DNA from: Escherichia phage JMPW1 | Direction: 5' to 3' (one strand) | DNA: 49,628 nucleotides | Sequence record: NC_041874.1 | Shown here: positions 525 to 19,881 of the stretch, in pieces | Numbering within the stretch: the stretch's first letter is position 1 | Layout of the letters: the number at the start of each line of letters is the position of its first letter | Notes under the pieces: generated by a model | The model's database searches: none | Seen by the model: only the letters and a program-made list of their open reading frames with translations | What the model was told of the DNA's origin: nothing | Translations under genes and position numbers: made by a program

Positions 525-1040
525 ATGAGCAATACCAATCAGGAATTAAAAATCACCGATATGATTCGACTAACCTGCGATGCAATGTATCGCGACAAAG
601 GCATGAATGAGTTCTCTTTCGTGGCTGATGATATGGCCCTCGAGGCCGCGCGATTCTACTTCCGTGACCAGGAGGTAAGTGATAGCGATCTTGAATCTGC
701 CGCTGCCGGATGGGTGGACCAGAACCAGGGTGAGGTGGAGAAGCGATTCAAGTCTGCTTTCATTACGCCAATCATTACCCGGCACTTTTGCAAGTATGGC
801 AAGGTGGCAAAGGTGAAGGTAGGCCGGAATGACGCTGCAATCACAATGATAACGGTTATCGTTACCGACGAAGAGATTCCCGTGAAGAAGCGCCGCAGTC
901 GGAAGAAAGTTAGCCTGGCCGATTGCCTGGATTCGTTTGTGGTTGATGTGGGTAAACTGGCTGATAGCGAATTGATGACTCGTGACGTAAACGAGATCGT
1001 TCGCCAGATGAAGGCGCATATCGAAAAGTGTGGACTGTAA
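525..1040 (+). CDS. hypothetical early protein (171 aa)
   Basis: ATG 7 nt after AAAGAGGA SD; first ORF after control region A; no recognisable motif. Confidence 0.6.
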   Translation: MSNTNQELKITDMIRLTCDAMYRDKGMNEFSFVADDMALEAARFYFRDQEVSDSDLESAAAGWVDQNQGEVEKRFKSAFITPIITRHFCKYGKVAKVKVGRNDAAITMITVIVTDEEIPVKKRRSRKKVSLADCLDSFVVDVGKLADSELMTRDVNEIVRQMKAHIEKCGL

Positions 1041-1055
1041 GCACTGAGCGGTAAA

Positions 1056-1098
1056 TAGCACTTTTTGTTAAAACCGGATCGGGATAACGCGGTATAGT
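1056..1098 (+). promoter_or_regulatory. palindrome-promoter cassette
   Basis: TAGCActtttTGTTA, 22-nt spacer, TATAGT 1093-1098; hairpin GGGATAAC/GTTATCCC spans the -10. Confidence 0.55.
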
Positions 1099-1326: not shown

Positions 1327-1797
1327 ATGACAACCATTACCGTATTTCTGGCTAAAGATGAGATTGATGGCGAAATGTCATTCTTCGCATTTGAGCACAA
1401 AACCGGATCGCACTGGCATATGTATAGCCGCTACACGGTTATCGATATCAACTCATACCGCGCAGGCTCACTTACTGAAAAGCTGGGTTGCTTCATTGGA
1501 GCTATCAAGGTGAACAATGGCTGCGAGTGGGCAGATGAGCACGAAGAGCGCCGCATGTGCAATATGATTAACCCGGTCTATCTTGAGTCGTTCGAGCTTG
1601 ATGCTGATGTGAACATTAAGGTGAGAAAGTCTGGTGAGTTATTGCCAGGGATGCGTGTGCTGACTGGTTACTCGGGCCGTAAGGTGTGGCGCACCGTATC
1701 GAAGATTCGCCAGCGTTCTGCAACATGCTACAGCGTATTCTTTGAAGATGGCTGGAATATGATGTCCGGTAGTGAGGTGAAGTATCTCACCAAATAG
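1327..1797 (+). CDS. hypothetical early protein (156 aa)
   Basis: Starts 3 nt after upstream stop; its TAG stop is the TAG of the next palindrome. Confidence 0.6.
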   Translation: MTTITVFLAKDEIDGEMSFFAFEHKTGSHWHMYSRYTVIDINSYRAGSLTEKLGCFIGAIKVNNGCEWADEHEERRMCNMINPVYLESFELDADVNIKVRKSGELLPGMRVLTGYSGRKVWRTVSKIRQRSATCYSVFFEDGWNMMSGSEVKYLTK

Positions 1798-1837
1798 CAC
1801 GAATTGTTAAAACCGGATCGGGGTATCTTGCTATAGT
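1795..1837 (+). promoter_or_regulatory. palindrome-promoter cassette
   Basis: TAGCAcgaatTGTTA, 22 nt, TGcTATAGT 1832-1837; hairpin GGGGTA/TACCCC. Confidence 0.55.
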
Positions 1838-1875
1838 TACCCCATCGAAACGAGATACCAATCAGAGGAATAACC

Positions 1876-2106
1876 ATGTCAATCGTCAAGAACCAGCAAG
1901 CAATCGATTAAACCAATAACAACCGCTTTGCTATTTTCATCACATCGATAGGTCGCCGATTTGCAGTCAAAGCCGTTCCGGGTGGATACAAAACCTACAT
2001 GGAAGATAAAGGAAAGTGGGTGTGGTGCGAAAACCTTGCAAACTTCCTAGTCTGGAATGCAGACCTCCAGGGCTTTGATGATATCAGCACCTTAATTGAG
2101 GAATAA
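1876..2106 (+). pseudogene. early gene interrupted by in-frame TAA (codon 12, 1909-1911)
   Basis: Canonical cassette leader ACCAATCAGAGGAATAACC-ATG. After an 11-aa ORF the same frame stays open for 64 more codons (TNNNRFAIF...STLIEE) to TAA 2104-2106. Confidence 0.45.
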
Positions 2107-3378: not shown

Positions 3379-3419
3379 GCACGAATTGTTAAAAGGGGAT
3401 TTGGCCTGACTGGTATAAT
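3377..3419 (+). promoter_or_regulatory. palindrome-promoter cassette
   Basis: AAGCAcgaatTGTTA, 22 nt, TGgTATAAT 3414-3419; hairpin GGGGATT/AATCCCC. Confidence 0.55.
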
Positions 3420-3956: not shown

Positions 3957-4030
3957 TGGCTGCATGGGTTTTGATTATCTTAATGAGTACCGGGCCGGAT
4001 CACGTATACATGGAAAGTCAGCAATCATGA
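3956..4030 (+). CDS. possible 24-aa micro-ORF
   Basis: TAATG overlap with upstream stop; MAAWVLIILMSTGPDHVYMESQQS; very short, so weak. Confidence 0.2.
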   Translation: MAAWVLIILMSTGPDHVYMESQQS

Positions 4031-4102
4031 AACAAGGTACGGGAAGTAATTGCAGAGAATAAGCCGTTCGGATATGAAGTAAAAACGATGTGCGTTAAAC
4101 GA

Positions 4103-4145
4103 TAGCACGAATTGCTAAACCTTCCGCAAGGCCATTTGATATAGT
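4103..4145 (+). promoter_or_regulatory. palindrome-promoter cassette
   Basis: TAGCAcgaatTGCTA, 22 nt, TGaTATAGT 4140-4145; hairpin AAGGCCA/TGGCCTT. Confidence 0.6.
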
Positions 4146-4185
4146 GGCCTTATTGAAGCAAGGCAACCAATCAGAGGAATCAGCT

Positions 4186-4392
4186 ATGGCTACACGACTA
4201 ACTCAGTGGCAGATTTACGACAAGGCCTCACGCCTTCGTGAATCGCTTCGCGGACTGACGCCGAATGACCGAATGGAGATTATCGGGCACGCATTGCACG
4301 AACTAACATCTCAGGACGTAATCTATCATTCATGCGGCAATAAATTCTGGAACGTGACATTCGAGGTAAAGAAAGATGAGCAAAACTCATAA
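4186..4392 (+). CDS. hypothetical early protein (68 aa)
   Basis: ATG after conserved leader AACCAATCAGAGGAATCAGCT. The GTG 4144 start in the ORF track lies inside the -10 element. Confidence 0.5.
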   Translation: MATRLTQWQIYDKASRLRESLRGLTPNDRMEIIGHALHELTSQDVIYHSCGNKFWNVTFEVKKDEQNS

Positions 4393-4663
4393 GTTAAAAA
4401 TCGCCCCGATACATTTCATTGGTGTAATGAACGGAACCAAAACGGCAGAGTTCCGCATCAATGACCGCAACTTCCAGGTTGGTGATATCCTTGAGCTACG
4501 CGAGTTCGATCGTGACGACTTTACCGGGTGGGAAGTTCACGCCAGGGTGTCCGATGTTACAGACGTGACGCCATACATCAATCGCGGTTATGACGAGCAA
4601 GAATGCGACTTCACGCAATACGTGATGTTATCAATCAAGCCTTACAGGAAGGTTAGACCATGA
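4376..4663 (+). CDS. DUF3850 / ASCH (PUA-like) domain protein
   Basis: HKLKIAPIHFIGVMNGTKTAEFRINDRNFQVGDILELREF matches my memory of the DUF3850 N-terminal signature. Confidence 0.6.
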   Translation: MSKTHKLKIAPIHFIGVMNGTKTAEFRINDRNFQVGDILELREFDRDDFTGWEVHARVSDVTDVTPYINRGYDEQECDFTQYVMLSIKPYRKVRP

Positions 4664-5298
4664 AATTTGAGTGCGTATCAAGTAGCGGATCTGGTTTTAA
4701 GTGGGGAAAAACTTACAAAGGTGTTCGCGTAAATGATGACAGCTTCATCATTACTGATGAGAACGGTTGCAACGTGAACGTTGTACGGCGTCACGAATAT
4801 CAGGAAATTTTCCTGCCTTATGGCGGTAGCTCAAAATATATCTTCCATCGAATCGTGGATGGTGTTAAATTTAACGACGTAATCGAAGCAATCAACCAAC
4901 TGCATAATAAAGAGGTAAAATTTATGAAATTCGAATGTATCAGCGACAACACTAAAAAATTTACCGTTGGAAAAATTTACAACGTTCCTTCTGAGCACGC
5001 TAAGCACACTTTAGCGCTGACCGACGACACAGGCTGCCAACGCATTGCAACCGTGACGCACAATGGCGAAGGTCTTCGCTGGAACAGCGGCGGCACTAAG
5101 TTCGCAACTTTCGGTAAGAAGCGCAAGCGCAATTTCCGCGTCAACGGCAAGATCAACACCAGCAAGATTAGCAACGTCAAGCCTATTAATGTTGACCACA
5201 AGCCAGAGCTTGATCTTAAAGGCAAGGTGGATATTCCTGATATGGCTTTAGCGATCCTTATTCTTGTTGCTCTAATTTCTATCATGCTCATCATGTAA
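4660..5298 (+). CDS. membrane-anchored protein with two tandem MKFEC mini-domains
   Basis: Repeat 1 starts MKFECVSSSGSGFKWGKTY and repeat 2 MKFECISDNTKKFTVGKIY. Repeat 2 keeps its own AAGAGG-ATG at 4909-4926. C-terminal TM helix MALAILILVALISIMLIM. Confidence 0.6.
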   Translation: MKFECVSSSGSGFKWGKTYKGVRVNDDSFIITDENGCNVNVVRRHEYQEIFLPYGGSSKYIFHRIVDGVKFNDVIEAINQLHNKEVKFMKFECISDNTKKFTVGKIYNVPSEHAKHTLALTDDTGCQRIATVTHNGEGLRWNSGGTKFATFGKKRKRNFRVNGKINTSKISNVKPINVDHKPELDLKGKVDIPDMALAILILVALISIMLIM

Positions 5299-5305
5299 TT
5301 TTAAC

Positions 5306-5339
5306 GGGGAATTGGCTCTGAGCGGTTCCCCTTTCTTTT
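5306..5339 (+). terminator. intrinsic terminator fused to SD
   Basis: GGGGAA...TTCCCC stem then TTTCTTTTGGAG. Confidence 0.55.
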
Positions 5340-5351
5340 GGAGAAAACACT

Positions 5352-5462
5352 ATGCCAGACTTTTCTAACTGGAATAACGAGCCGCCATCATTTCAGGAGT
5401 TGCTATTCTGCCTCCTGGTCCTGACATTATCTCTTAAGGGTGTTTTATGGCTACTATCATAA
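5352..5462 (+). CDS. possible 36-aa membrane peptide
   Basis: GGAG SD fused to terminator T-run; MPDFSNWNNEPPSFQELLFCLLVLTLSLKGVLWLLS; overlaps next gene by 16 nt. Confidence 0.3.
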   Translation: MPDFSNWNNEPPSFQELLFCLLVLTLSLKGVLWLLS

Positions 5463-5665
5463 CAGCAGAAGATGCAGCACGCGACGCAGTGGAAGGAATG
5501 CGCCCAAATACCTCCAGAATAGCACACTACTACAAATCTGAGGTGTCGGCAGTGCAATTGGTCAACGAAATTTTAAGGCTACCACAAGTCGATTCAGCGC
5601 GCGTGGTGACGTGCTTAAAAAATTATTTTTGCATCGCTATTAAAACGAATAGCACGAATTGCTAA
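5447..5665 (+). CDS. hypothetical early protein (72 aa)
   Basis: ORF track; stop lies in palindrome 5650-5664. Confidence 0.45.
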   Translation: MATIITAEDAARDAVEGMRPNTSRIAHYYKSEVSAVQLVNEILRLPQVDSARVVTCLKNYFCIAIKTNSTNC

Positions 5666-5692
5666 AACCTATCAAGGGGAATGCGCTATGAT
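5650..5692 (+). promoter_or_regulatory. palindrome-promoter cassette
   Basis: TAGCAcgaatTGCTA, 22 nt, TATGAT 5687-5692; hairpin GGGAAT/ATTCCC. Confidence 0.5.
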
Positions 5693-5722
5693 TCCCATGC
5701 ACCAACAAACGAGGAAGCACTC

Positions 5723-6169
5723 ATGAAACACTTAATTTGCATTGAAACGCCTAACGACCAGTACACCCTGCACGGCATTGGAATGTTCAAAGGTCACTAC
5801 ATGACAGCAAGTATTCATGATTCGCGTTGCGTCAATGGCGATCTGATGATTACGTCAAAAGAAGTAACTCCGTACATTATGCAGAATCTTGGCAATAACG
5901 AATATATGGCCTACGGATGCAATGCGGTGTACAAGCATATCAAGATCAGAAAACGCGTTGTTCGCGCATTCAAGAAAATTGCAATGAAACAATGGAAGAT
6001 GAGCAAGAAAGATGCTGGACGCTGGGCGCGTAACGTTGCAGATTCATACTTCTACCGTAACGGTGAGTCCTGCCACTTCCTTATCGATGAACTTATGGAA
6101 AACTACGGCGGCGACTTCAGTCAGGGTGGCTTTGACGCTTGGGCTGACTACGAGGTCGATTACTGGTAA
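5723..6169 (+). CDS. hypothetical early protein (148 aa)
   Basis: ATG after ACGAGGAAGCACTC. The 5681 start in the ORF track overlaps the -10 hexamer TATGAT 5687-5692. Confidence 0.55.
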   Translation: MKHLICIETPNDQYTLHGIGMFKGHYMTASIHDSRCVNGDLMITSKEVTPYIMQNLGNNEYMAYGCNAVYKHIKIRKRVVRAFKKIAMKQWKMSKKDAGRWARNVADSYFYRNGESCHFLIDELMENYGGDFSQGGFDAWADYEVDYW

Positions 6170-6212
6170 TAGCACGAATTGCTAAAACTTGCTCAAGGGC
6201 ATTTGATAGAAT
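6170..6212 (+). promoter_or_regulatory. palindrome-promoter cassette
   Basis: TAGCAcgaatTGCTA, 22 nt, TGaTAGAAT 6207-6212; hairpin AAGGGCAT/ATGCCCTT. Confidence 0.6.
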
Positions 6213-6252
6213 GCCCTTCGTTGAGTTAAGCAACCAATCAGAGGAATAAATC

Positions 6253-6864
6253 ATGGATAAAATTACCATTTGGGGCCAGACAATCAACCTGTTTCTCGGC
6301 ACGCGCCGCGTAGCAATCTTTGACTTTGATGGAACACTTAGCGATGGATCTGGTCGACTTCACCTGCTACCTACAAAGGATTTGCACTTAACTGAAAGCT
6401 GGTCCGAGTTTAACCGCGCGGCAATATTTGACAACCCTATCCAAAGCACGATCGATGTGATGAACTCTATGTATGCCGCTGGTCATCATGTGATCATTTT
6501 AACCGGGCGAAGTGATGAGGTGCGTTACGCATCTGAGTTGTGGCTTAAGCATCACGGCGCTCGATATGATTACCTGATTATGCGACCATACACCGATAAC
6601 CGGAAAGACACAGTAATGAAAGAAGAGGCGGTGCGCGCGATCGGCATTGATAACATTCTGGCGGCCTGGGATGACTCACCGCAAATTATTCCATTATTCC
6701 GCTCACTTGGAATAACCACTTACGCTGTAGTTGACTATGGCGATAAAGTTCACGATCATTTAAAATCTCACGGGGTAGATGAGGTTTGCAATCATGAACC
6801 ATCTGAGCCGCTACCGCCATTTGGTGAGAAAATTTGCATTAAGTGCAAGGAGTTATTGAAGTGA
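6253..6864 (+). CDS. HAD-family polynucleotide 3'-phosphatase-like protein (T4 Pnkp C-terminal-domain type)
   Basis: DFDGTL motif I, ILTGR motif, RKDTVMKEEAV and WDDSPQIIPLFRSLGI. These resemble T4 Pnkp phosphatase-domain blocks (RKDDVVKEE, IDDRTQVVEMW) as I remember them. Confidence 0.75.
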   Translation: MDKITIWGQTINLFLGTRRVAIFDFDGTLSDGSGRLHLLPTKDLHLTESWSEFNRAAIFDNPIQSTIDVMNSMYAAGHHVIILTGRSDEVRYASELWLKHHGARYDYLIMRPYTDNRKDTVMKEEAVRAIGIDNILAAWDDSPQIIPLFRSLGITTYAVVDYGDKVHDHLKSHGVDEVCNHEPSEPLPPFGEKICIKCKELLK

Positions 6865-6971
6865 ACCTATACGAATTTATTGCAGCACATCCGGTACTAA
6901 CAGTTATCATTCTGTTAATCATAAACTCCACCATCATCAATGTGGCGAAATTATTTTTAGGGAGATACTGA
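6861..6971 (+). CDS. possible 36-aa membrane peptide
   Basis: GTGA overlap with upstream stop; MNLYEFIAAHPVLTVIILLIINSTIINVAKLFLGRY; its stop lies 1 nt before the next ATG. Confidence 0.3.
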   Translation: MNLYEFIAAHPVLTVIILLIINSTIINVAKLFLGRY

Positions 6972-6972
6972 C

Positions 6973-7545
6973 ATGAAAACAGCTATCATTTTAAACGGTG
7001 CGCCTGGCGCGGGAAAAGACACTATAGGGTGCATCCTGGCTGACACTTACGATCATGTAGCGCTACGCAGCTTTAAAGCTCCAATGTTTGAGATTGCCCG
7101 AGCAATCCTGGGTGAGACTAATTTTGAGTATTTCATGTTCTTGTATGAGGACCGTCGCTATAAAGAAGAGCCAGCATCAATCCTGAACGGTAAAAGCCCG
7201 CGCCAGTTTATGATCTGGATTAGCGAGGAGGTTATCAAGCCGCAGTTCGGAAATCGCTTCTTCGGTATGCGAGCGGAAAGCAAGGTGAAAGAGTCTCACT
7301 CCCTTTCGGTATTTACTGACGGTGGATTCAAAGACGAAATCTTGCAGATGATTGAAGGTGAAATCCAGGTCAAGCTATGTCGAATCCATCGCAACGGTTG
7401 CAACTTTGACAACGACAGTCGCGACTACATCTATCTTGACGATATGATCGGGGTCAACGGTTATCAGGAATGTGACTTCTTCTCTGTCGAAGGTCATCCA
7501 GAAATTACCGCTCAGCACATAGCCGCCACGTTCATCAACAAATAG
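6973..7545 (+). CDS. P-loop kinase of the phage dNMP-kinase family
   Basis: Walker A GAPGAGKDT; LNGKSP and SPRQFMIWISEE blocks resemble T4 gp1 dNMP kinase (GKDT, LNGKSP). Confidence 0.7.
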   Translation: MKTAIILNGAPGAGKDTIGCILADTYDHVALRSFKAPMFEIARAILGETNFEYFMFLYEDRRYKEEPASILNGKSPRQFMIWISEEVIKPQFGNRFFGMRAESKVKESHSLSVFTDGGFKDEILQMIEGEIQVKLCRIHRNGCNFDNDSRDYIYLDDMIGVNGYQECDFFSVEGHPEITAQHIAATFINK

Positions 7546-7585
7546 CACGAATTGCTAAAACGTCGGTGGGGTGACTTGATATAGT
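7543..7585 (+). promoter_or_regulatory. palindrome-promoter cassette
   Basis: TAGCAcgaatTGCTA, 22 nt, TGaTATAGT 7580-7585; imperfect hairpin GGGGTGAC/GTTACCTC. Confidence 0.6.
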
Positions 7586-7617
7586 TACCTCATCGACAAC
7601 GAAGAGAGAAAATCGAA

Positions 7618-7827
7618 ATGATGGTATCAACTGATAAGTTTTTCACTTGCACTAAAACTTCTGAAGTATTCGAACTGGTTCATACTGATAATGGTGACTT
7701 CATGCATGACGGTTGCGACGTTTTCATTGAAGTGAAAGAAAGCGACTATGACTATGGGGTTTATTATAACCCGGCAGTGAACACTCAGTTTTTTACACCG
7801 ATCGAAGAGGAAGGAGAAGAAGCATGA
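7618..7827 (+). CDS. hypothetical acidic protein (69 aa)
   Basis: Follows cassette 7543-7585; acidic C-terminus EEEGEEA. Confidence 0.5.
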   Translation: MMVSTDKFFTCTKTSEVFELVHTDNGDFMHDGCDVFIEVKESDYDYGVYYNPAVNTQFFTPIEEEGEEA

Positions 7828-8168
7828 TCACGATTAACCTGTCAGATAAACAAGCGCGTGAAATCCTCGATACTATCGGCGAACAGCTTCACGTAAAAGT
7901 CGCTACCGCTGAGATTCTTAACCAGATCGAAAGACAGCTAACCCCGGTGTCGACGAATCAGGCTGAGTTCTCAATCTGGAAAAGCGAGCGAATCCTGCCA
8001 AATATCATCAAGGCATGGAAGCGCAAGAATAAAAAAGAAATCAATGTTGATGACTTATTTTCTGATGAATTAAGTCCTTCAAAGGTTGCTCAATATCAGT
8101 TGCGATACATGGAATCAGTTTGCAATCAGGTTTTAAATGTCAACTTTTCATTCGGGAGTGGTAAATAA
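7824..8168 (+). CDS. hypothetical protein (114 aa)
   Basis: ATGA overlap with upstream gene. Confidence 0.5.
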   Translation: MITINLSDKQAREILDTIGEQLHVKVATAEILNQIERQLTPVSTNQAEFSIWKSERILPNIIKAWKRKNKKEINVDDLFSDELSPSKVAQYQLRYMESVCNQVLNVNFSFGSGK

Positions 8169-8398
8169 TGTTTGGTTTAAGTGAAGCGGAATGGAACGTG
8201 GTAAAGCGCGCGGCGAAGGAATTGAATAAATTCGTTAGCGGAATGAAGAAAGAAGATCGCAAAAACGAAAAGATTATGATTGATGTGATCTCAACTCATC
8301 ACAAAAAGGTTGAGCTACTCATCGACCGCTACAAGTTTGTATGGACCGCCGGATATATTGCAGGGCGCGTAGGTAACAAAGAGGGTGATTACGAATAA
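8168..8398 (+). CDS. hypothetical protein (76 aa)
   Basis: TAATG overlap with upstream gene. Confidence 0.5.
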   Translation: MFGLSEAEWNVVKRAAKELNKFVSGMKKEDRKNEKIMIDVISTHHKKVELLIDRYKFVWTAGYIAGRVGNKEGDYE

Positions 8399-8601
8399 TG
8401 GCTAACTTACCGAAGAAAGGCGATCAGGTTCGATGTGTTACATCACGCAATGGTGATGCTTTCTCAGCGGGATGCTTGTATGACGTTGAAAAAGTAAGTA
8501 AAGCAAAGAGACTCGTATTTGTATACGGAGACGATGGAAATATTCATGAGATTGACTACCCGCAGGATATTACTAATGGCCAATTTGAAATTAATGATTG
8601 A
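8398..8601 (+). CDS. hypothetical small beta-rich protein (67 aa), mini-domain family member
   Basis: TAATG overlap; KKGDQVRCVTSRNGDAFSAGCLYDV...GDDGNIHEI resembles the MKFEC-type mini-domains. Confidence 0.5.
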   Translation: MANLPKKGDQVRCVTSRNGDAFSAGCLYDVEKVSKAKRLVFVYGDDGNIHEIDYPQDITNGQFEIND

Positions 8602-8627
8602 CCTGAATCTCTGAGCGGTGATAGTAT
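8598..8627 (+). promoter_or_regulatory. sigma70-type promoter candidate with extended -10
   Basis: TTGACC (8598-8603), 18-nt spacer, TGaTAGTAT (-10 at 8622-8627); heads a 140-nt hairpin-rich untranslated stretch. Confidence 0.4.
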
Positions 8628-8765
8628 TAATCCCGTAGACAGACGAGGCGCAAATAAGCGCAACGCGTGAGACGATTCTCACACTTCCAGCTAACAAGCT
8701 CGGTTGCATAGTGGTTAAGCAACGCCGCAGACCCGTAAGCGGCAACAATTCAAGAGGATTGCATA

Positions 8766-8927
8766 ATGCAAAAAACTAAAGACGAATCAGTCAAAATTGA
8801 AATTAAAGTAACTCGCAACGGTGAAACCACTAGTTATAAAAAACGATTAAATCCTGGCGAGGCTGTTATTGGTCGCATTGCTGGCGTTATGATTAAGGCG
8901 CAGGAAGATGAAGCGATTCAAAGTTAA
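8766..8927 (+). CDS. possible hypothetical protein (53 aa)
   Basis: AAGAGGATTGCATA-ATG; below the ORF-track length cut-off; MQKTKDESVKIEIKVTRNGETTSYKK... Confidence 0.35.
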   Translation: MQKTKDESVKIEIKVTRNGETTSYKKRLNPGEAVIGRIAGVMIKAQEDEAIQS

Positions 8928-9093
8928 ATTAATTATTCGAAAGATGGGAATGTTTTGCCAGTCGTGCAAGCAATCTTTCGAAACTGAATTATCAGCAACC
9001 AGTCAGGATGAAGCCATCACGAAAGCAAAAAAACTTTCCGGCGCTAACCTTGACACTCACAAAATAAATATTGAATTAATCAAGGAGATTTAA
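8908..9093 (+). CDS. hypothetical protein (61 aa; start uncertain)
   Basis: ORF track; contains CQSC; overlaps 8766-8927 by 20 nt. Confidence 0.4.
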   Translation: MKRFKVKLIIRKMGMFCQSCKQSFETELSATSQDEAITKAKKLSGANLDTHKINIELIKEI

Positions 9094-9094
9094 C

Positions 9095-9322
9095 ATGACA
9101 ATTTTTTTATTGATTATCGCTGGTGTCATTATTTTTGGTGCTGGTTTGTTTGCTGGCTTCGCACTTGTGGCGGCAGCAATTGCGATGGACGCGAAGGATA
9201 AAACTGGTGTATGGCTGACCTACTCGCCTAAGAAGGATCAATGGGAAATGACTGGCGACCTTGCTCACTGCTACTCTAAAGCTCAGACCCACCCTAAAGG
9301 CATTAAACGACGATTATCGTGA
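9095..9322 (+). CDS. membrane protein (75 aa)
   Basis: GGAG SD; N-terminal TM helix IFLLIIAGVIIFGAGLFAGFALVAAAIA; followed by terminator 9331-9354. Confidence 0.5.
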   Translation: MTIFLLIIAGVIIFGAGLFAGFALVAAAIAMDAKDKTGVWLTYSPKKDQWEMTGDLAHCYSKAQTHPKGIKRRLS

Positions 9323-9330
9323 TAAATACT

Positions 9331-9354
9331 AACCCGCTTCGGCGGGTTTTTTTA
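9331..9354 (+). terminator. intrinsic terminator (end of early region)
   Basis: ACCCGC ttcg GCGGGT followed by TTTTTTT. Confidence 0.8.
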
Positions 9355-9365
9355 TGCCTGCAATA

Positions 9366-9388
9366 TGGTAAAATAGCACTAAATGTTA
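9366..9388 (+). promoter_or_regulatory. extended -10 promoter overlapped by palindrome (terS)
   Basis: TGgTAAAAT (9366-9374); its last T is the first base of TAGCActaaaTGTTA (9374-9388), 18 nt before the terS ATG. Confidence 0.45.
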
Positions 9389-9406
9389 AACAAAGAGGAT
9401 GGATTT

Positions 9407-9931
9407 ATGAGTGAACCTAAGAACGCCCCCGTAGTCCAGGGAGGTAATTTCAAAGAGCTATACAAGAAAAAGTTCGGCACTGTTCTTGCTAAAAACCGGG
9501 CAATGACGCCTGAGCAACTATTCGATCTGTCAGTTAAGTATTTCGAATGGGCTGAGGACAACGCAATCAAGGCGTCAGAATCAGCCAGCTTTCAGGGTGG
9601 CGTTTATGAATCGCTAGTTCATAAGCCGCGAGTCTTCACCTGGACCGGATACCGACTATTCATCGGTGCAAGCGAGGCAGCAATCATTAAGTGGAAGCGA
9701 GAGGAAGAATACAGTGAGGTTATGGAGTTTGTGGAATCGGTAATCAACGAGCAAAAATTCCAGCTTGCCGCCAACGGTGTTATTAATGCCTCCTTTATCG
9801 GTAAGGATCTCGGAATCGATAAGCCAGCCTCAATCAATATCGAAAACTCGTCAGCTTCCGCATCGACAGTAGTCGCCACCACTGAGGATGCAATGAAAGA
9901 GGCAGTAAATAGCATTCTTGACATGCTTTAA
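9407..9931 (+). CDS. terS: terminase small subunit
   Basis: Immediately upstream of terL; GAGGATGG SD; FEWAEDNAIK...FTWTGYRLFIG resembles T1-type small-terminase proteins (from memory). Confidence 0.7.
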   Translation: MSEPKNAPVVQGGNFKELYKKKFGTVLAKNRAMTPEQLFDLSVKYFEWAEDNAIKASESASFQGGVYESLVHKPRVFTWTGYRLFIGASEAAIIKWKREEEYSEVMEFVESVINEQKFQLAANGVINASFIGKDLGIDKPASINIENSSASASTVVATTEDAMKEAVNSILDML

Positions 9932-9970
9932 CGTTACGGGCGCGCGAGCGCCCACATGGGAGACTTAATC

Positions 9971-11539
9971 ATGATTCAATGGGAAGACCTTAACGCAACG
10001 CAGAAGTTAGCGATCAAGAAAATGAGCGAGGCCAATTTCGAAAAAATGATTCGGATCTGGTTCCAGCTTATGCAGGCGCAGCAGTTCCAGCCTAACTGGC
10101 ATCACCTTTACCTATGTCACGAAGTGGAGGAAATAATTGCAGGCCGACGCGGCAACACTATCTTTAACGTCACGCCTGGTTCCGGTAAAACTGAAGTGTT
10201 CTCAATTCACCTTCCGGTATACGCAATGCTCAAGTGTAAAAAGGTGCGAAACCTTAACGTGTCGTTTGCCGACAGCTTGGTTAAGCGTAACAGTAAGCGT
10301 GTCCGTGAGATTATCAGCAGCAACGAATTTCAAGAGCTATGGCCTTGCAAGTTCGGCACATCGAAAGACGAGGAGATGCAGGTTCTTAACGAAGATGGAA
10401 AGGTTTGGTTTGAGTTGATATCCGCAGCGGCTGGAGGTCGTATTACAGGTTCGCGTGGTGGCTACATGACGCCGGGATTCTCCGGTATGGTAATGCTCGA
10501 CGATATCGACAAGCCTGATGATATGTTCTCAAAGGTTAAGCGTGAGCGTACGCATATGCTACTGAAGAACACCATTCGCTCGCGCCGTATGCACAACGAA
10601 ACGCCAATCATCGCAATTCAGCAGCGACTACACGCACAGGATTCAACATGGTTCATGATGAATGGCGGGATGGGGATCGAGTTTGATCAAATCTCAATTC
10701 CGGCACTGGTGACTGAAGAATACGGAAAGACGCTTCCTGACTGGTTACAACCATACTTCGAGCGCGACGTTTTGTCGTCTGAGTATGTAGAATTGGATGG
10801 AGTTAAGCATTACTCATTCTGGCCCAGCAAGGAAAGCGTTCACGACCTGTTAGCTCTTCGAGAAGCGGACCAGTATACCTTTGACTCTCAGTATCAGCAG
10901 AAGCCGATCGCGCTTGGTGGCTCCGTGTTCAATTCGGAGTGGTGGACTTATTACGGCAGCAGCCTTGACGCTGATGAGCCGGATCCTGGTAAATATGATT
11001 ACCGTTTTATCACCGCTGATACCGCTCAGAAGACAGGTGAGCTAAACGACTACACAGTCTTTTGTTTATGGGGTAAGAAAAACGATAAGGTTTACTTTAT
11101 CGACGGCATTCGCGGAAAGTGGGAAGCGCCGGATATGGAGAAGCAATTTACCGCTTTCGTCAACCAAGCATGGAGGCACAATAAATCAATGGGGGTGCTT
11201 CGTAAAATCTATGTGGAAGATAAGGCGAGTGGTACGGGCTTAATCCAGAATCTAAGGAAAAAGACTCCGATATCCATCACTCCATTGCAGCGTAACAAAG
11301 ACAAAGTTACCCGAGCTATGGATGCCCAGCCAGTTATTAAAGCCGGGCGCGTGGTTCTGCCAGAAGAGCACCCCATGCTTGCGGAAATTATCGCGGAACA
11401 TAGCGCGTTCACTTACGATGACACGCATCCGCACGACGATATTGTCGATAACTTCATGGACGCTGCAAACATTGAACTACTGACAATTGACGATCCTATC
11501 GAGAGAATGAAGCGACTCGCCGGGATGGTTAAGCGGTAA
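9971..11539 (+). CDS. terL: terminase large subunit
   Basis: Walker A VTPGSGKTE, Walker B-like MVMLDDID, C-terminal RNaseH-like nuclease region (ITADTAQK...FCLWG...DD); GGGAG SD before ATG 9971. Confidence 0.9.
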   Translation: MIQWEDLNATQKLAIKKMSEANFEKMIRIWFQLMQAQQFQPNWHHLYLCHEVEEIIAGRRGNTIFNVTPGSGKTEVFSIHLPVYAMLKCKKVRNLNVSFADSLVKRNSKRVREIISSNEFQELWPCKFGTSKDEEMQVLNEDGKVWFELISAAAGGRITGSRGGYMTPGFSGMVMLDDIDKPDDMFSKVKRERTHMLLKNTIRSRRMHNETPIIAIQQRLHAQDSTWFMMNGGMGIEFDQISIPALVTEEYGKTLPDWLQPYFERDVLSSEYVELDGVKHYSFWPSKESVHDLLALREADQYTFDSQYQQKPIALGGSVFNSEWWTYYGSSLDADEPDPGKYDYRFITADTAQKTGELNDYTVFCLWGKKNDKVYFIDGIRGKWEAPDMEKQFTAFVNQAWRHNKSMGVLRKIYVEDKASGTGLIQNLRKKTPISITPLQRNKDKVTRAMDAQPVIKAGRVVLPEEHPMLAEIIAEHSAFTYDDTHPHDDIVDNFMDAANIELLTIDDPIERMKRLAGMVKR

Positions 11540-11555
11540 TAAATGAGATATAATC

Positions 11556-11583
11556 AGGGCTGTCAATTGACGGCCCTTTTTAT
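11556..11583 (+). terminator. terminator-like hairpin between terL and portal
   Basis: GGGCTGTCAATTGACGGCCC palindrome then TTTTTATTGGAGG. Confidence 0.55.
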
Positions 11584-11593
11584 TGGAGGAAAC

Positions 11594-12877
11594 ATGAAAA
11601 TTGTTAAGCATGATGGATATAACGATATTTTTAACGGCGGTGCAGACGGATCGCCTAAGCCATTCTTTATGTCTGATGCATCATATCACGTCGGTTCTTT
11701 CTACAACGACAACGCAACCGCGAAGCGAATTGTGGATGTTATCCCGGAAGAGATGGTGACGGCTGGTTTTAAAATGTCAGGCGTTAAGGATGAAAAAGAG
11801 TTCAAGTCTTTATGGGATAGCTACAAACTTGATTCAAGTCTGGTGGATCTTCTTTGTTGGGCGCGACTTTACGGTGGCGCGGCGATGGTGGCAATCATCA
11901 ACGACAACCGGATGTTAACCAGTCAGGCAAAGCCTGGAGCCAAACTTGAAGGCGTCCGAGTTTACGATCGATTTGCTATCACTGTTGAAAAGCGAGTCAC
12001 CAATGCAAGATCCCCTCGCTATGGTGAGCCTGAAATCTACAAGGTATCCCCTGGCGACAATATGCAGCCGTATCTGATTCATCACTCAAGAGTCTTTATT
12101 GCTGATGGTGAGCGAGTAACGCAACAGGCAAGAAAACAGAATCAAGGATGGGGAGCATCGGTATTGAACAAGTCACTGATTGATGCAATCTGTGACTATG
12201 ATTACTGTGAATCTCTGGCTACTCAGATCTTGAGACGTAAGCAACAGGCTGTATGGAAGGTCAAAGGTCTTGCCGAAATGTGTGATGATGATGATGCTCA
12301 GTACGCCGCGCGCCTGCGACTTGCTCAGGTTGATGATAACTCCGGCGTGGGCCGTGCGATCGGTATCGATGCTGAGACTGAGGAATATGACGTTCTCAAC
12401 TCTGATATCAGCGGAGTTCCTGAGTTCTTATCAAGCAAGATGGACCGCATCGTCTCCCTATCCGGGATCCATGAGATTATCATCAAGAATAAGAACGTAG
12501 GCGGCGTATCAGCGAGCCAAAACACAGCGCTTGAGACTTTCTATAAGCTAGTCGATCGCAAGCGCGAGGAAGATTACAGGCCGCTTCTTGAGTTCTTGTT
12601 GCCGTTCATTGTTGATGAGGAAGAGTGGTCGATCGAGTTTGAGCCTTTGTCTGTTCCGAGTAAGAAAGAGGAATCAGAGATCACGAAGAATAACGTTGAG
12701 TCAGTCACGAAGGCTATCACTGAGCAAATCATCGATCTGGAAGAAGCTCGCGACACGTTGCGATCCATTGCCCCTGAGTTCAAACTCAAGGATGGTAATA
12801 ACATCAACATTCGCGAACCGGAAGAAACAACCGAACCGGAGCCGGGATTAGGGGAGAAGTTAGAAGATGAAAATTAA
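11594..12877 (+). CDS. portal protein
   Basis: Position after terL, about 427 aa, acidic C-terminus; TTGGAGGAAAC-ATG. The 11543 start in the ORF track runs through the terminator hairpin. Confidence 0.85.
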   Translation: MKIVKHDGYNDIFNGGADGSPKPFFMSDASYHVGSFYNDNATAKRIVDVIPEEMVTAGFKMSGVKDEKEFKSLWDSYKLDSSLVDLLCWARLYGGAAMVAIINDNRMLTSQAKPGAKLEGVRVYDRFAITVEKRVTNARSPRYGEPEIYKVSPGDNMQPYLIHHSRVFIADGERVTQQARKQNQGWGASVLNKSLIDAICDYDYCESLATQILRRKQQAVWKVKGLAEMCDDDDAQYAARLRLAQVDDNSGVGRAIGIDAETEEYDVLNSDISGVPEFLSSKMDRIVSLSGIHEIIIKNKNVGGVSASQNTALETFYKLVDRKREEDYRPLLEFLLPFIVDEEEWSIEFEPLSVPSKKEESEITKNNVESVTKAITEQIIDLEEARDTLRSIAPEFKLKDGNNINIREPEETTEPEPGLGEKLEDEN

Positions 12878-13628
12878 TGGCGTTGCAACACAGTGGCGCT
12901 ATCCTGAAATGAGCGAGCGCGCAATGTCGCGCTCCCTACAGGATGTTGCAGCCAAACTAACTGAAAAAATGCGTGACGAATTAAAGCCGATGAAATTTGA
13001 CGCTACTGACGAAGAGATAGATCAGACAGAAAGGTCATTGCTTGATTACGTCGAATCACTCATCGCTCCGATTATTGGTTCTCTATCATCCGTTGCGCTC
13101 GCGATCTATAAATTCAACTCTAAGCAGTGGCTGCGCATCGCTCGCAATGCTGGAGGTAAGAAGAATCAAGCCGTGATGCTACTAGCCCTGATTGGTCCTA
13201 CCGCTGCCGAAAGCTGGTACTCAGGACAATATAATCTGTGGCGATCGCAGGTGACTACTTCTATCAGGAAATTTGCCGCCAACATGGTTACTGATTTCAC
13301 TGATAAACTTCGTGCGGCATCCGGTCAGGGTAAAAGCAAGGATTTTGTTGTTGAACTTGCTAAGGAGCGATTTGGTATTTACCGTAGCTGGGCCAAAAAT
13401 AGAGCGTCGGGAATTGTCGGAACCTGGAACAGTAGACTGATGCGGCAGCGCATAAAAGACGCTGGTGTATCTTACTATTTCTGGCGCGGGGTGATGGATT
13501 TACGCGAACGTGAAAAACATGTAAGATGGGAAGGTAAGCGCATAGCGGTAGATTCCGATCACGTATTCCCGGGTGAAGAATACAACTGCCGCTGTTGGGC
13601 TGTTCCAGACTTTTCTACAGGAGATTAA
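12867..13628 (+). CDS. head morphogenesis protein (SPP1 gp7 / Mu F-like)
   Basis: Follows portal; C-terminal HVFPGEEYNCRCWAVP matches the Mu-F-family NCRC signature. Confidence 0.8.
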   Translation: MKINGVATQWRYPEMSERAMSRSLQDVAAKLTEKMRDELKPMKFDATDEEIDQTERSLLDYVESLIAPIIGSLSSVALAIYKFNSKQWLRIARNAGGKKNQAVMLLALIGPTAAESWYSGQYNLWRSQVTTSIRKFAANMVTDFTDKLRAASGQGKSKDFVVELAKERFGIYRSWAKNRASGIVGTWNSRLMRQRIKDAGVSYYFWRGVMDLREREKHVRWEGKRIAVDSDHVFPGEEYNCRCWAVPDFSTGD

Positions 13629-17492: not shown

Positions 17493-17903
17493 ATGAATCA
17501 AGAAACTTTAATTGCAGCTGTTGAGCAAATGCGAAAGCTGGTTCCGGCACTTCGTAAGGTTCCAGACGAAACGCTTTATGCGTGGGTAGAAATGGCTGAG
17601 CTTTTTGTATGCCAGAAGACCTTTAAAGACGCATACGTCAAAGCGATCGCTCTTTATGCATTACACCTTGCTTTCCTTGATGGGGCGCTAAAAGGTGAAG
17701 ATGAGGATCTGGAATCGTACTCACGCCGCGTTACGTCATTCTCACTGAGCGGTGAATTTAGCCAGACTTTCGGAGAGGTTACGAAGAACCAGTCAGGGAA
17801 CATGATGCTTTCTACGCCGTGGGGTAAGATGTTCGAACAGCTTAAAGCGAGACGCCGTGGTAGATTCGCATTAATGACAGGACTCCGTGGAGGATGCCAC
17901 TAA
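17493..17903 (+). CDS. head-tail connector (adaptor) protein
   Basis: GGGGG SD then ATG 17493 just after terminator 17457-17481. Position and size fit a gp6-type adaptor. The 17313 start in the ORF track crosses the terminator. Confidence 0.55.
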   Translation: MNQETLIAAVEQMRKLVPALRKVPDETLYAWVEMAELFVCQKTFKDAYVKAIALYALHLAFLDGALKGEDEDLESYSRRVTSFSLSGEFSQTFGEVTKNQSGNMMLSTPWGKMFEQLKARRRGRFALMTGLRGGCH

Positions 17904-19806: not shown

Positions 19807-19844
19807 CTGTAAAATCATCCTATCAACTCTATTCACTTAACTTT

Positions 19845-19859
19845 TAACAAAAAGTGCTA
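19845..19859. promoter_or_regulatory. palindrome TAACAaaaagTGCTA upstream of tail chaperone gene
   Basis: Consensus flanks are in minus orientation, 22 nt from TGaTAGGAT on the minus strand. On the plus strand it abuts the leader CAACCAATCAGGAG. Confidence 0.4.
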
Positions 19860-19881
19860 TCAACCAATCAGGAGAAACATC

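Follow-up and report, generated by a model that had tools for sequence, protein, structure and literature searches.

Dispersed genomic signals include Chi (GCTGGTGG) and the sequences by which Haemophilus and Neisseria take up DNA. These non-palindromic words, 8-10 nt long, are far more frequent than expected (about one copy per 1-5 kb), located mostly in genes and in several frames, more evenly spaced than chance and genome-specific. Cluster K mycobacteriophages carry Start-Associated Sequences (SAS), short asymmetric repeats that contain the SD core and lie a few bases before many ATGs, in one orientation at the starts of genes of different families; SAS are conserved across subclusters and beyond 16S pairing, are absent from the host, and commonly follow an inverted repeat (ESAS) (Pope et al. 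2011, PMC3203893). In T4-type phages, the promoter-early stem-loop (PeSL) cassettes are repeated intergenic units of a promoter and a stem-loop, which flank small genes of unknown function and provide homology for modular shuffling (Arbiol et al. 2010, PMC2839356; PMC4122927). Class II promoters of MarA, SoxS and Rob (RamA), such as micF, carry a forward-oriented marbox and no -35 hexamer (PMC12052159, PMC8811837, PMC3709825).

The window, i.e., the whole 49,628-nt stretch of DNA analysed here, comes from a T1-like coliphage of the Drexlerviridae and is identical to IME167/phi2013. For T1, a classic coliphage, hardly any gene-expression or replication signals have been described. The window encodes, among other enzymes, a T7-gp4-type zinc-ribbon primase, a RecE-like exonuclease and an Mre11-like protein, and a VRR-NUC nuclease lies next to its ResIII helicase. 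The annotations of phi2013, T1, TLS and Rtp contain neither an integrase nor an immunity repressor.

Seven leader copies and a repeated promoter cassette

The original prediction described one leader string before seven genes on both strands, and all seven sites were found. The 9-mer ACCAATCAG starts at 1857, 4166, 6233, 19863 and 32236 on the plus strand, and at 46413 and 49487 on the minus strand:

1857-1878, plus strand: leader copy 1, ACCAATCAG with AGGA, 6 nt, ATG 1876, ORF cut to 10 codons
4165-4188, plus strand: leader copy 2, AACCAATCAG with AGGA, ATG 4186, 68-aa protein, phrog_18601
6232-6255, plus strand: leader copy 3, AACCAATCAG with AGGA, ATG 6253, polynucleotide kinase/phosphatase
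19862-19884, plus strand: leader copy 4, AACCAATCAG with GAG, ATG 19882, tail assembly chaperone
32236-32258, plus strand: leader copy 5, ACCAATCAG with GAG, ATG 32256, Erf recombinase
46391-46414, minus strand: leader copy 6, AACCAATCAG with GAG, ATG 46393, 138-aa protein, phrog_2684
49464-49488, minus strand: leader copy 7, AACCAATCAG with AGGA, ATG 49466, 70-aa protein, phrog_16851

In all seven, the word is sense-oriented and directly adjoined by AGGA or GAG, with the SD 0-2 nt and the ATG 10-12 nt downstream of the 9-mer; the preceding base is A in five. A single element, (A)ACCAATCAG joined to the SD, recurs in all seven leaders. Gene calls were the longest ATG ORFs, a crude set in which one or two sites are mis-assigned. 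The ORF at 1876 has only 10 codons here, cut short by an in-frame TAA; its T1 orthologue, ST75 (YP_003869), is annotated as a 76-codon gene. For Erf, the start at 32256, with GGAG 8 nt upstream, is more credible than that of the GenBank records, which corresponds to 32223 and falls within the promoter hairpin.

The leader had been described as conserved for about 8 nt upstream of the SD, which is real but too short a description, since at five of the seven sites a module of about 75 nt (box, hairpin, -10 hexamer and leader) is shared. At these five sites, the leader copy forms the downstream end of a repeated promoter cassette, in which a marbox-like box is followed by a 19-nt gap, a -10 hexamer in a covarying hairpin, a C/A-rich leader, and the word with its SD. 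The window holds about 20 or more such modules, and C/A-rich leaders are the rule in the remaining ones too. The following elements accompany the leader copies:

1794-1843, plus strand: module of copy 1; box 1794-1812 (13/14), 19-nt gap, TGCTATAGT, -10 hexamer 1832-1837, hairpin GGGGTA/TACCCC 1820-1843
4102-4151, plus strand: module of copy 2; box 4102-4120 (14/14), -10 TATAGT 4140-4145, hairpin AAGGCCA/TGGCCTT 4128-4151, DNA fold z -3.2
6169-6218, plus strand: module of copy 3; box 6169-6187 (13/14), -10 TAGAAT 6207-6212, hairpin AAGGGCA/TGCCCTT, z -4.4
32182-32232, plus strand: module of copy 5; box 32182-32200 (14/14), TGTTATAAT, -10 hexamer 32219-32224, hairpin TGAGGTG/CACCTCA, z -4.9
46424-46473, minus strand: module of copy 6; box 46473-46455 (12/14), -10 TAAAGT, hairpin AAGGTCA/TGGCCTT, z -2.8; paralogue of the module at 4102
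49499-49543, minus strand: weak module of copy 7; box 49543-49525 (11/14), -10 TATGAT; no significant hairpin (z -0.7)
19842-19860, minus strand: inverted box (13/14) abutting leader copy 4

Copy 4 has no forward promoter module; the inverted box lies directly upstream of it, so that, read on the minus strand, CTGATTGGT precedes the box by 2 nt.

Scored against AYnGCACnnWnnRYYAAAY, the box reaches at least 13 of the 14 specified positions at 21 sites in the window versus none in 50 kb of E. coli, and the mar operon's own marbox scores 13/14. The forward orientation and the constant 19-nt gap to TAnnnT would place it at about -50 to -32 from the predicted start site, with its centre near -41; class II marboxes are centred between -36 and -55 and overlap the -35 position (PMC12052159; PMC8811837). 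As in micF and similar promoters, 13-14 of 14 positions agree and there is no -35 hexamer; a canonical -35/-10 promoter was not found at the modules, with no -35 at 16-18 nt. The 21-nt box thus matches the MarA/SoxS/Rob marbox at the class II position and is a putative site for these activators. Unlike the described class II promoters, the phage has about 20 copies, with the -10 in a hairpin. The predicted start of transcription is the A of CATCGAAAC, some 7 nt downstream of TATAGT. Because tblastn found no phage-encoded MarA homologue, a host factor is implied for the box.

The function of this 21-nt intergenic repeat is listed as an open question in the 2024 re-annotation of TLS (PMC11447400), one that the class II marbox reading opens to direct tests. 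In the literature searched, we found no paper linking the marbox to phage promoters and no reported transcription start sites for Drexlerviridae. The marbox reading raises the possibility that host Rob, MarA or SoxS (RamA in Klebsiella) is needed to fire the promoters of T1-like phages. If so, the host stress and antibiotic-resistance regulon might control susceptibility to these phages, a question relevant to phage therapy, where Drexlerviridae are widely used.

Three other assignments of the box were discarded: a sigma-54 promoter would need a GG/GC spacing two bases longer (by eye), a -35 hexamer here would stand 22 nt from the -10, and as a palindromic operator TAGCA/TGCTA alone pairs, often imperfectly. 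L5 stoperators have been suggested as a comparison for the box (PMC11447400), and they too are short asymmetric sites in many copies across a phage genome. However, they bind the repressor of a temperate phage and lie mostly between genes, oriented one way with respect to transcription, whereas T1-like phages are virulent, and most copies of the word fall in coding sequence, on either strand.

The idea that the leader is part of a mobile cassette fits the comparison with relatives, where the promoter-hairpin-leader unit stands before at least seven unrelated genes in different phages and similarity breaks off at the edges of the motif. Within the window, a unit of about 60 nt (the AAGGCCA hairpin, leader and word) occurs twice, at 4102 (plus strand) and 46473 (minus strand); mosaic junctions lie at 1852, 4178 and 6251, and also in L021 and L029. 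As with PeSL, repeated promoter and stem-loop units thus precede different genes, including small ones of unknown function, with breakpoints at the cassette edges and homology available for shuffling. The PeSL stem-loop, however, is a terminator next to a full sigma-70 promoter, and neither was found here: in the cassette the -10 hexamer lies within the hairpin, after which comes ATCGAAAC with no T run (no U tract in the RNA), and a marbox-like box takes the place of the -35. PeSLs also have no conserved leader word.

This spread, in a phage that encodes the recombination proteins Erf and RecE-like, is what would be seen if the word were functionless, merely the conserved end of a cassette propagated by duplication and recombination like T4-type PeSL. 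Such passive homology is quite unlikely to be the explanation. The word is also found where there is no cassette (in the tail chaperone leader and at L021:1651, L014:857, Rtp rtp1 and L024:20028), stays exact even where both flanks have fully diverged, and recurs inside genes in copies that are not derivable from cassettes and are under purifying selection. Breakpoints at coding-copy sites are weakly enriched (10 vs 5.2 expected), most of them at intergenic copies, and the coding copies were rejected as recombination hot spots.

A word family dispersed through the genome

The seven listed leaders left out six further exact copies of ACCAATCAG, at 534 (plus strand) and at 13188, 24827, 28944, 37442 and 39121 (minus strand), all six inside genes. 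The resulting 13 copies on both strands compare with 0.28 expected from dinucleotide-preserving shuffles (maximum 2 in 100 shuffles). The top 9-mers of the window are ACCAGTCAG (14 copies), ACCAATCAG (13) and ACCGCTCAG (10), which form the most over-represented 9-mer family of the genome, ACC(AA/AG/GC)TCAG, with 37 copies, about 27 of them inside genes. The seven leaders are the gene-start members of this family, a warning for annotation that what the eye picks out as 'conserved leaders' can be the visible part of a signal spread over the whole genome. The non-leader copies are:

534-542, plus strand: ACCAATCAG, in gene 525-1040, codons 4-6, T-N-Q
1044-1052, minus strand: ACCGCTCAG; plus strand CTGAGCGGT, 2 nt upstream of the box at 1055
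1660-1668, minus strand: ACCAGTCAG, coding, antisense to gene 1327-1797
3406-3414, minus strand: ACCAGTCAG; plus strand CTGACTGGTATAAT, hairpin loop and extended -10 of the module at 3376
5318-5326, minus strand: ACCGCTCAG; plus strand CTGAGCGGT in the loop of terminator-like hairpin 5306-5331
7507-7515, plus strand: ACCGCTCAG, coding, sense
8611-8619, minus strand: ACCGCTCAG, gene context uncertain
8998-9006, plus strand: ACCAGTCAG, coding, sense
10737-10745, minus strand: word copy, large terminase gene; sense strand cCT GAC TGG Tt, P-D-W; kept in 4/5 other genera compared, CTGATTGGA in Rtp, CTGATTGGT in TLS
11021-11029, plus strand: ACCGCTCAG, large terminase gene, sense; kept in TLS
11918-11926, plus strand: ACCAGTCAG, portal gene, sense
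13188-13196, minus strand: exact ACCAATCAG; sense strand CTG ATT GGT, L-I-G
15510-15518, minus strand: ACCGCTCAG, antisense
16255-16263, plus strand: ACCGCTCAG, major capsid gene, sense
17745-17753, minus strand: word copy, sense strand CTGAGCGGT; kept in 4 other genera, CTGACTGGT in TLS and A14b
17788-17796, plus strand: ACCAGTCAG, sense; 35 nt from the copy at 17745
22821-22829, minus strand: word copy, tape-measure gene; kept as CTGATTGGT in TLS and A14b
24827-24835, minus strand: word copy, minor tail gene, L-I-G; exact in 4 other genera, one base different in TLS (TTGATTGGT)
28944-28952, minus strand: word copy, tail fibre gene, L-I-G
30545-30553, plus strand: ACCAGTCAG, antisense to a cor-like gene on the minus strand
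31738-31746, minus strand: word copy, exonuclease gene, antisense
33115-33123, minus strand: word copy, SSB gene, antisense
35385-35393, minus strand: ACCGCTCAG, primase gene, sense
37442-37450, minus strand: word copy, helicase gene, L-I-G
39121-39129, minus strand: word copy, VRR-NUC gene, L-I-G; CTGACTGGT in TLS
39201-39209, plus strand: ACCAGTCAG, VRR-NUC gene, sense
40933-40941, minus strand: ACCAGTCAG, antisense; kept in Rtp and 12469II
43478-43486, minus strand: ACCGCTCAG, antisense to the spanin gene by the phi2013 annotation; our own ORF call is doubtful
45433-45441, minus strand: ACCAGTCAG, DUF3987 helicase gene, sense
47461-47469, plus strand: ACCAGTCAG, antisense to a minus-strand gene

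Under Markov order-3 and order-5 nulls, P for the three words is 1e-7 to 1e-16 in the window, on par with the known 21-nt repeat, and that of ACCAATCAG reaches 2e-21 in TLS. The family is enriched across Drexlerviridae; a 50-kb E. coli sample has 1, 1 and 0 copies of the three words, and two non-Drexlerviridae siphoviruses have 0-2 copies of each. Against synonymous-codon shuffles, a null that under-predicts many other words as well (e.g., TTCCGGC and CGATCG), the coding copies number 21 vs 2.9 in the window, 20 vs 2.4 in T1 and 18 vs 1.9 in TLS. The family was chosen post hoc from the top 9-mers, and on that choice the orientation test gave a 6.2-fold sense and 8.7-fold antisense enrichment inside genes, while the spacing test gave copies more evenly spaced than chance (gap CV 0.63 in the window, P=0.003; below 0.72 in all 8 genomes vs about 0.9-0.96 expected).

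The under-prediction of TTCCGGC and CGATCG also bears on whether favoured codons (CTG, ATT, GGT, ACC and CAG) simply make the word common, and five coding ACCAATCAG copies are in-frame CTG-ATT-GGT, all antisense. Such a compositional or codon-usage artefact is nevertheless very improbable: E. coli, with similar codon preferences, has almost none of the words in 50 kb, the words stay at the top under order-5 nulls, the coding copies use every frame except one creating TGA (5/6 frame/orientation classes), and they are conserved beyond the adjacent coding 9-mers. We discarded codon-usage coincidence on the 9-mer census, Markov nulls, E. coli control and conservation tests.

Coding copies are identical in 63 of 84 site-by-relative comparisons vs 31.6 expected, indicating purifying selection, and in a relative at 72% identity 8 of 14 are identical vs 1.1 expected. 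At deeply conserved sites the family members interconvert, although the position of most coding copies is not conserved between genera. The flanks of the word are also biased (A before, G-A-A after, T rare), at coding copies likewise. No second half-site or bipartite motif was found within 45 nt either side of the word, and the copies show no visible polarity between the strands along the genome, which a role in packaging or end protection would predict. Matches of the 15-mer AACCAATCAGAGGAA in IMG/VR outside T1-like contigs resemble chance, and in the literature searched we found no paper on the word family in a phage context. To the host transcription-factor sites of IHF, PdhR/UxuR (half-sites) and Cra and to the RfaH ops element, the word bears no more than a partial resemblance.

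RNA-level and DNA-level readings of the word

That the leader is more conserved than ribosome binding needs was borne out, the conservation being far above chance and more than 16S pairing can use. The original prediction named a translational enhancer or a RegA-style RNA operator as a possible cause, and neither gained support from 16S pairing, folding, accessibility or Rfam. ACCAAT cannot pair with rRNA, since no more than 2-3 nt of the 16S 3′ end extend upstream past the SD duplex. The best complementarity is 8/10 with G-U allowed, reached by 71% of shuffled motifs, a comparison on which an extended SD was rejected. The seven leaders show neither a conserved RNA structure, their predicted folds differing, nor raised accessibility, and no Rfam match was found in the window. 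As for RegA, whose operators overlap the start codon, the word ends 10-12 nt before the ATG without overlapping it, and there was no RegA-like Pfam match among the 20 window proteins scanned, about 55 further ORFs lying outside the scan.

The proposed search for the motif in related phages gave a positive answer, with the leader word before about 25 or more different N-termini (the count of 29 seven-residue sequences includes a few variants of one gene or false hits). Nearly all of these copies are sense-oriented and adjoin the SD, and in Webervirus the word is kept before the tail chaperone and Erf genes at 44-48% protein identity. As in SAS, an asymmetric SD-containing repeat thus lies in one orientation a few nucleotides before the starts of different gene families, is conserved among relatives beyond 16S pairing, is nearly absent from the host sample, and often follows an inverted repeat. 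The two sequences, GGGATAGGAGCCC vs AACCAATCAGGAG, are unrelated, however, and the upstream inverted repeat here varies, covaries and encloses the -10 hexamer. Moreover, SAS are confined to gene starts, in one orientation, of the non-structural half, whereas 30 of the 37 family copies lie elsewhere, mostly inside genes, genome-wide and enriched in both orientations.

A start-associated RNA element, like the Cluster K SAS, is an alternative in line with the original prediction, in which ACCAAUCAG by the SD would be an enhancer, a standby site or an operator of a phage or host RNA-binding regulator, the coding copies being a separate matter. It would suit the sense orientation and position of all seven leaders, the variety of genes downstream in relatives and the Webervirus copies, as well as the fixed distance of the word to the SD, that to the -10 varying from 11 to 20 nt. 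The gene directly after the 68-aa gene of copy 2 encodes an ASCH/DUF3850 'RNA-binding' protein, and C/A-rich leaders extend to the remaining modules. C/A-rich enhancers are reportedly known in E. coli, from Sharma in 2007 and Yang in 2014. We nevertheless find the RNA element somewhat doubtful, given the pairing, folding, accessibility and Rfam results above and the Webervirus Erf gene, where the word is 17 nt from the ATG and a separate SD is present. An unstructured leader would not need nine invariant bases, and an RNA-binding leader regulator, as had been proposed, cannot explain why the word and its two sisters are enriched 6-9 fold in genes, in both orientations and under purifying selection. 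An RNA-level role for the leader copies, all sense-oriented and SD-fused, is conceivable.

Three related ideas were rejected. Coding copies are poor candidates for internal translation starts, as 3 of 14 ACCAGTCAG copies have an ATG 4-12 nt downstream, about chance (by eye). Long-range pairing of a leader with a complementary coding copy meets a central A-C mismatch, the nearest upstream copies (1660, 31738) being AG variants, and shows no compensatory pattern. An operator-like Dhillonvirus repeat, GCAACCAAT, resembles the leader, but a shared regulator is implausible with few genes in common (only tail genes, Dam, an Mre11-like protein and a methyltransferase).

We see about an even chance for a recognition word that is read at the DNA level, has been fused to ribosome sites and has travelled with recombining promoter cassettes, a reading that would take in the observed anatomy, statistics, conservation and mosaic junctions. 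A sequence-specific factor reading the word along phage DNA, rather than the ribosome, would cause the extra conservation; at gene starts, the purine-rich 3′ flank (GGAG or AGGA) would double as a ribosome-binding site; and recombination at cassette and word boundaries, in part visible in the junctions, would have placed the unit before many unrelated genes. We infer that the reader is a DNA-binding protein or an enzyme, and infer its action likewise. Against this DNA-level reading, an orientation-blind signal does not predict leader copies that are sense-only and abut the SD. In Rtp, Sushi and A14b, moreover, the coding enrichment is mainly in the opposite orientation, with CTGAxxGGT on the mRNA-sense strand (in 12469II the bias is less clear, with 3 sense copies vs 0.39 expected), so leader and coding copies may be two phenomena sharing one word.

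Our preferred guess is a replication or recombination 'self' signal over translational control. In its specific form, which we offer tentatively, the word would be a dispersed 'self' signal of T1-like phages read on DNA by a replication or recombination enzyme, the gene-start copies being dual-use sites whose flank was recruited as SD. It resembles Chi and the uptake sequences in its length and lack of symmetry, density, genome-specific excess inside genes, use of several frames and even spacing, and the complement, as in Chi, is G/T-rich and begins with CTG. It differs in belonging to a 50-kb virulent phage rather than a bacterium, in having three interchangeable variants, in the fusion of some copies to ribosome-binding sites, and in a reader that is only putative. 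If the DNA-level signal is true, with selection on synonymous sites maintaining the word about every 1.3 kb, T1-like phages would supply one of few examples of a Chi- or USS-like 'genome word' among small virulent phages, and the word would point to a new sequence-reading activity.

Two versions of the 'self' signal can be envisaged. In one, the word would act as a Chi-like attenuator, sparing phage DNA from the nuclease that destroys the host chromosome. In the other, it would be the preferred start of the T7-gp4-type zinc-ribbon primase, with primers pppACC; T7 primers begin with pppACC. The template form on the mRNA-sense strand would then be the lagging-strand template if forks move with transcription. 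The complement of the family reads CTGAYTGGT or CTGAGCGGT.

Leader copies and the wider word family

Over bases 4000-12000, the window matches Enterobacteria phage vB_EcoS_IME167 and Escherichia phage phi2013 (Drexlerviridae, Tunavirus) at 100% identity; other T1-like phages are ~90% identical to the window. Gene assignments follow the maps of phi2013, T1, TLS and Rtp. Comparisons throughout drew on eight complete genomes of Drexlerviridae plus 25 partial loci. The seven leader copies of the 9-base word ACCAATCAG are exactly as originally noted. They are sense-oriented, with AGGA or GAG directly 3′ and an ATG 10-12 nt past the 9-mer. The genes behind them are varied: two small early ORFs, two small leftward genes, and those for polynucleotide kinase, the tail assembly chaperone and the Erf recombinase. 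The ORF after the first copy (1876-1908) meets an in-frame TAA after 10 codons, past which the frame runs on and matches the 76-codon T1 gene ST75; this ORF is a pseudogene or else reflects a sequencing error common to IME167 and phi2013. For Erf, the originally noted start at 32256 has GGAG 8 nt before it and is preferable to the deposited one. In GenBank relatives, Erf is annotated as starting at an ATG within the promoter hairpin (window 32223), and ATG 32256 is likely the true start.

The word is not leader-specific. In a 9-mer census of the whole genome, the top three were ACCAGTCAG (14 copies), ACCAATCAG (13 over both strands, versus 0.28 in dinucleotide-preserving shuffles) and ACCGCTCAG (10), and the word family, ACC(AA/AG/GC)TCAG, was defined post hoc from such top words. 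Under Markov models of order 3 and order 5, the same three lead the over-represented 9-mers of the window, T1 and TLS, on par with or above the 21-nt box repeat of the promoters; TLS carries 19 copies of ACCAATCAG (P=2e-21). CCAATCAGG ranks among the top words of Webervirus and Hanrivervirus, and the Braunvirinae signal is weak. The three words number 1, 1 and 0 copies in 50 kb of E. coli, and 0-2 copies each in a Dhillonvirus and one other unrelated siphovirus.

Copies are distributed more evenly than by chance: the gap CV is 0.63 for the window (P=0.003) and 0.36-0.71 over all eight genomes, versus ~0.9-0.96 expected. The flanks are weakly informative (A 5′ of the word, G-A-A 3′, T rare), giving a full site of roughly tAACCARTCAGGAa; a second half-site near the word was looked for and none was found.

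Copies inside genes and selection on the word

Approximately 27 of the 37 family copies in the window lie inside genes. Coding copies are ~7-fold above synonymous-codon shuffles in the window, T1 and TLS; because other words are likewise under-predicted by this null, more weight goes to the Markov and E. coli controls. All frame and orientation classes are used but the TGA-creating one, and the word is enriched in both orientations relative to the gene (6.2-fold and 8.7-fold), these statistics resting on longest-ATG ORFs with one or two sites mis-assigned. CTGAxxGGT on the mRNA-sense strand makes up most of the excess in Rtp, Sushi and A14b; the orientation is less clear in 12469II, with three sense copies versus 0.39 expected.

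With coding 9-mers of the same alignments as the control, coding copies were identical in 63 of 84 site-by-relative comparisons among Tunavirus-like relatives, versus 31.6 predicted. In T1, 29 of 33 copies are exact (19.2 expected), as are 8 of 14 in a relative at 72% identity (1.1 expected). Between genera, most copies turn over, each genus retaining 2-7 of ~20 versus <1 expected. Retained sites swap family members: in the genes of the terminase and the tape measure CTGACTGGT becomes CTGATTGGT, at 17745 CTGAGCGGT becomes CTGACTGGT, and at 43478 ACCGCTCAG becomes ACCAGTCAG. DNA-level selection on the word is well supported, and the sequence comparisons suggest that it acts on density and family membership, not on particular positions.

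The promoter cassette, its hairpin and a marbox-like box

Conservation upstream of the SD was confirmed, and the ~8 nt originally estimated proved too short: the alignment reaches ~75 nt at five of the seven sites, where the leader is the 3′ end of a larger cassette. The window holds ~20 or more such modules, with one fixed order of parts:

Part 1: box, ATAGCACnnWTTGYTAAAA
Part 2: gap of 19 nt, constant
Part 3: -10 hexamer TAnnnT, mostly TATAGT, often with TGn in front
Part 4: C/A-rich leader, CATCGAAACGA...
Part 5: SD, then ATG

A standard -35/-10 scan of 7 kb gave 11 matches versus 12.6 expected, none of them at modules. A hairpin has the -10 hexamer (TGnTATAGT) in its loop and 3′ arm; the arms vary between copies with complementarity kept. 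Of 219 unique modules, taken from the window and from relatives and including 41 distinct arm sequences, 42% have a stem of at least 6 bp without interruption, versus 3% with swapped partners. DNA folding z-scores were -1.7 to -4.9 in seven of eight modules tested.

Module hairpins: 1820-1843, 4128-4151, 6195-6218, 7568-7595, 32211-32232, 46424-46447, 48055-48078, and other modules
Box, + strand: 1055, 1794, 2815, 3376, 4102, 5649, 6169, 7542, 9373, 32182, 35264, 36806, 39315, 40338, 42326
Box, - strand: 121, 16098, 19860, 36357, 45973, 46473, 46989, 48105, 48569, 49543

Since the module hairpin has no T tract 3′, it is not a terminator; it may offer the -10 hexamer pre-melted on supercoiled DNA. 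At 5306-5331, a terminator-like hairpin (GGGGAA...TTCCCC, then TTTCTTTT, with CTGAGCGGT in the loop) resembles the hairpin of the 3376 module minus its -10 hexamer, and may be a decayed module now serving as a terminator.

In a re-annotation of TLS, the box was described as a 21-nt repeat of "function unknown" and posed as an open question (PMC11447400). The box matches 13-14 of the 14 specified positions of the MarA/SoxS/Rob marbox, AYnGCACnnWnnRYYAAAY (PMC3709825), on which the mar operon's own marbox scores 13/14. Sites at this level number 21 in the window and 0 in 50 kb of E. coli. The box is forward-oriented, 19 nt from the -10 hexamer and centred near -41 from start sites predicted from sequence, the same orientation and centre position as in micF and other class II marbox promoters (PMC12052159, PMC8811837). 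No MarA homologue encoded by these phages was found, nor, in the literature searched, any paper tying marboxes to phage promoters. The sequence match points to host Rob, MarA or SoxS as the putative drivers of T1-like promoters.

The word's complement also occurs beside promoter parts. It lies directly 5′ of the -10 hexamer (CTGAYTGGTAnnAT) at TLS 2975 and 47205 and at window 3406, and, as CTGAGCGGT or CTGATTGGT, exactly 2 nt 5′ of the box in three places:

Window 1044-1073: complement and box
Window 19842-19871 (-): complement and box
TLS 1512-1540: complement and box

The word in leaders and its possible reader

The leader form recurs in related phages; across 25 terminase-region loci plus the complete genomes, some 25 or more different N-termini follow it. 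One AAGGCCA-hairpin cassette precedes at least seven unrelated genes. The word persists where the upstream side alone is replaced (relative L021, 1651) and where the downstream gene alone is replaced (L021, 6140; relative L029, 5769), and similarity breakpoints lie at 1852, 4178 and 6251. Webervirus tail-chaperone and Erf leaders retain ACCAATCAG at 44-48% protein identity, with the Erf word 17 nt from the ATG and the SD separate; the chaperone gene of TLS and A14b is preceded by ACCACTCAG. The word is absent from the Braunvirinae tail-chaperone and Erf leaders compared, and outside T1-like contigs the 15-mer occurs at chance level only.

The most economical reading is that of one DNA word, which a sequence-specific factor would read and which is maintained genome-wide. 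Its intergenic copies would be sited so that the purine-rich flank is the SD, and would be carried on marbox-hairpin promoter cassettes recombining among genes. The chief rival is the originally proposed action at the RNA level in leaders. The -10-to-word distance ranges from 11 to 20 nt and the word-SD distance is fixed, so the constraint ties the word to the ribosome site and not to the promoter; leader copies are also uniformly sense-oriented. These two points speak most strongly for an RNA-level role. Tests of RNA mechanisms were negative: the 16S 3′ end is unable to pair with bases 5′ of the SD, no stretch within the 16S complements the word particularly well, and predicted 5′ UTRs have no common fold, the word not being specially unpaired. 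An Rfam search gave no matches. The sole candidate RNA binder noticed is a DUF3850/ASCH-type protein (4376-4663; RefSeq label "RNA-binding protein"), encoded after the gene of the second leader copy.

As for what would read a DNA word, a start site for the phage primase is one candidate. T7 primers start pppACC, the phage primase has a T7-gp4/P4-type zinc ribbon, and the word's template form on the mRNA-sense strand would be on the lagging-strand template if forks follow transcription; but nine specified bases are far above the number in any known primase site, conservation does not cover the preceding "cryptic" base, and Webervirus and Veterinaerplatzvirus prefer C-initial forms. A Chi- or USS-like "self" mark is the other candidate. 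The phage has several nucleases and helicases, and Chi sites (GCTGGTGG) number 0 in the 49.6-kb window versus 6 in 50 kb of E. coli. Among 20 proteins scanned, the sole predicted sequence-specific DNA binder is a conserved Cro-like HTH protein (36344-36793, -; T1 gp23, phrog_2856), which may read the word or the control-region repeats.

These repeats (clustered GCAAT/GCAAC, TTGCAATCAATCGCAATCAG, TTGCAACAGTTGG) lie in the divergent control region between the early arms (1-60, 49568-49628). In TLS, the control region (49756-49817, -) has tandem palindromes, with AGACCAATCGGTCT twice, adjoining a box and word copy; such repeats and palindromes may be operator sites. Also between the divergent early arms, 190-400 is very AT-rich, with TATATA/ATAGATA repeats, and could be a DNA-unwinding element or origin. 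Over the whole window, CGATCG and other GATC-containing words are over-represented.

The unrelated coliphage TH11 (Escherichia virus TH11, Dhillonvirus) shares with the window phage only tail genes, Dam, a Mre11-like protein and a methyltransferase (62% identical). Its genome carries 15 copies of a separate intergenic repeat, (T)GCAACCAAT, often paired and overlapping promoter-like sequences:

TH11 repeat, example sites: 9825, 26440, 31448, 41285, 44100-44593

One copy before an SD reads GCAACCAATTTACGAGGATTTAGCTATGGC, closely resembling the T1-like leader GCAACCAATCAGAGGAATCAGCTATGGC.
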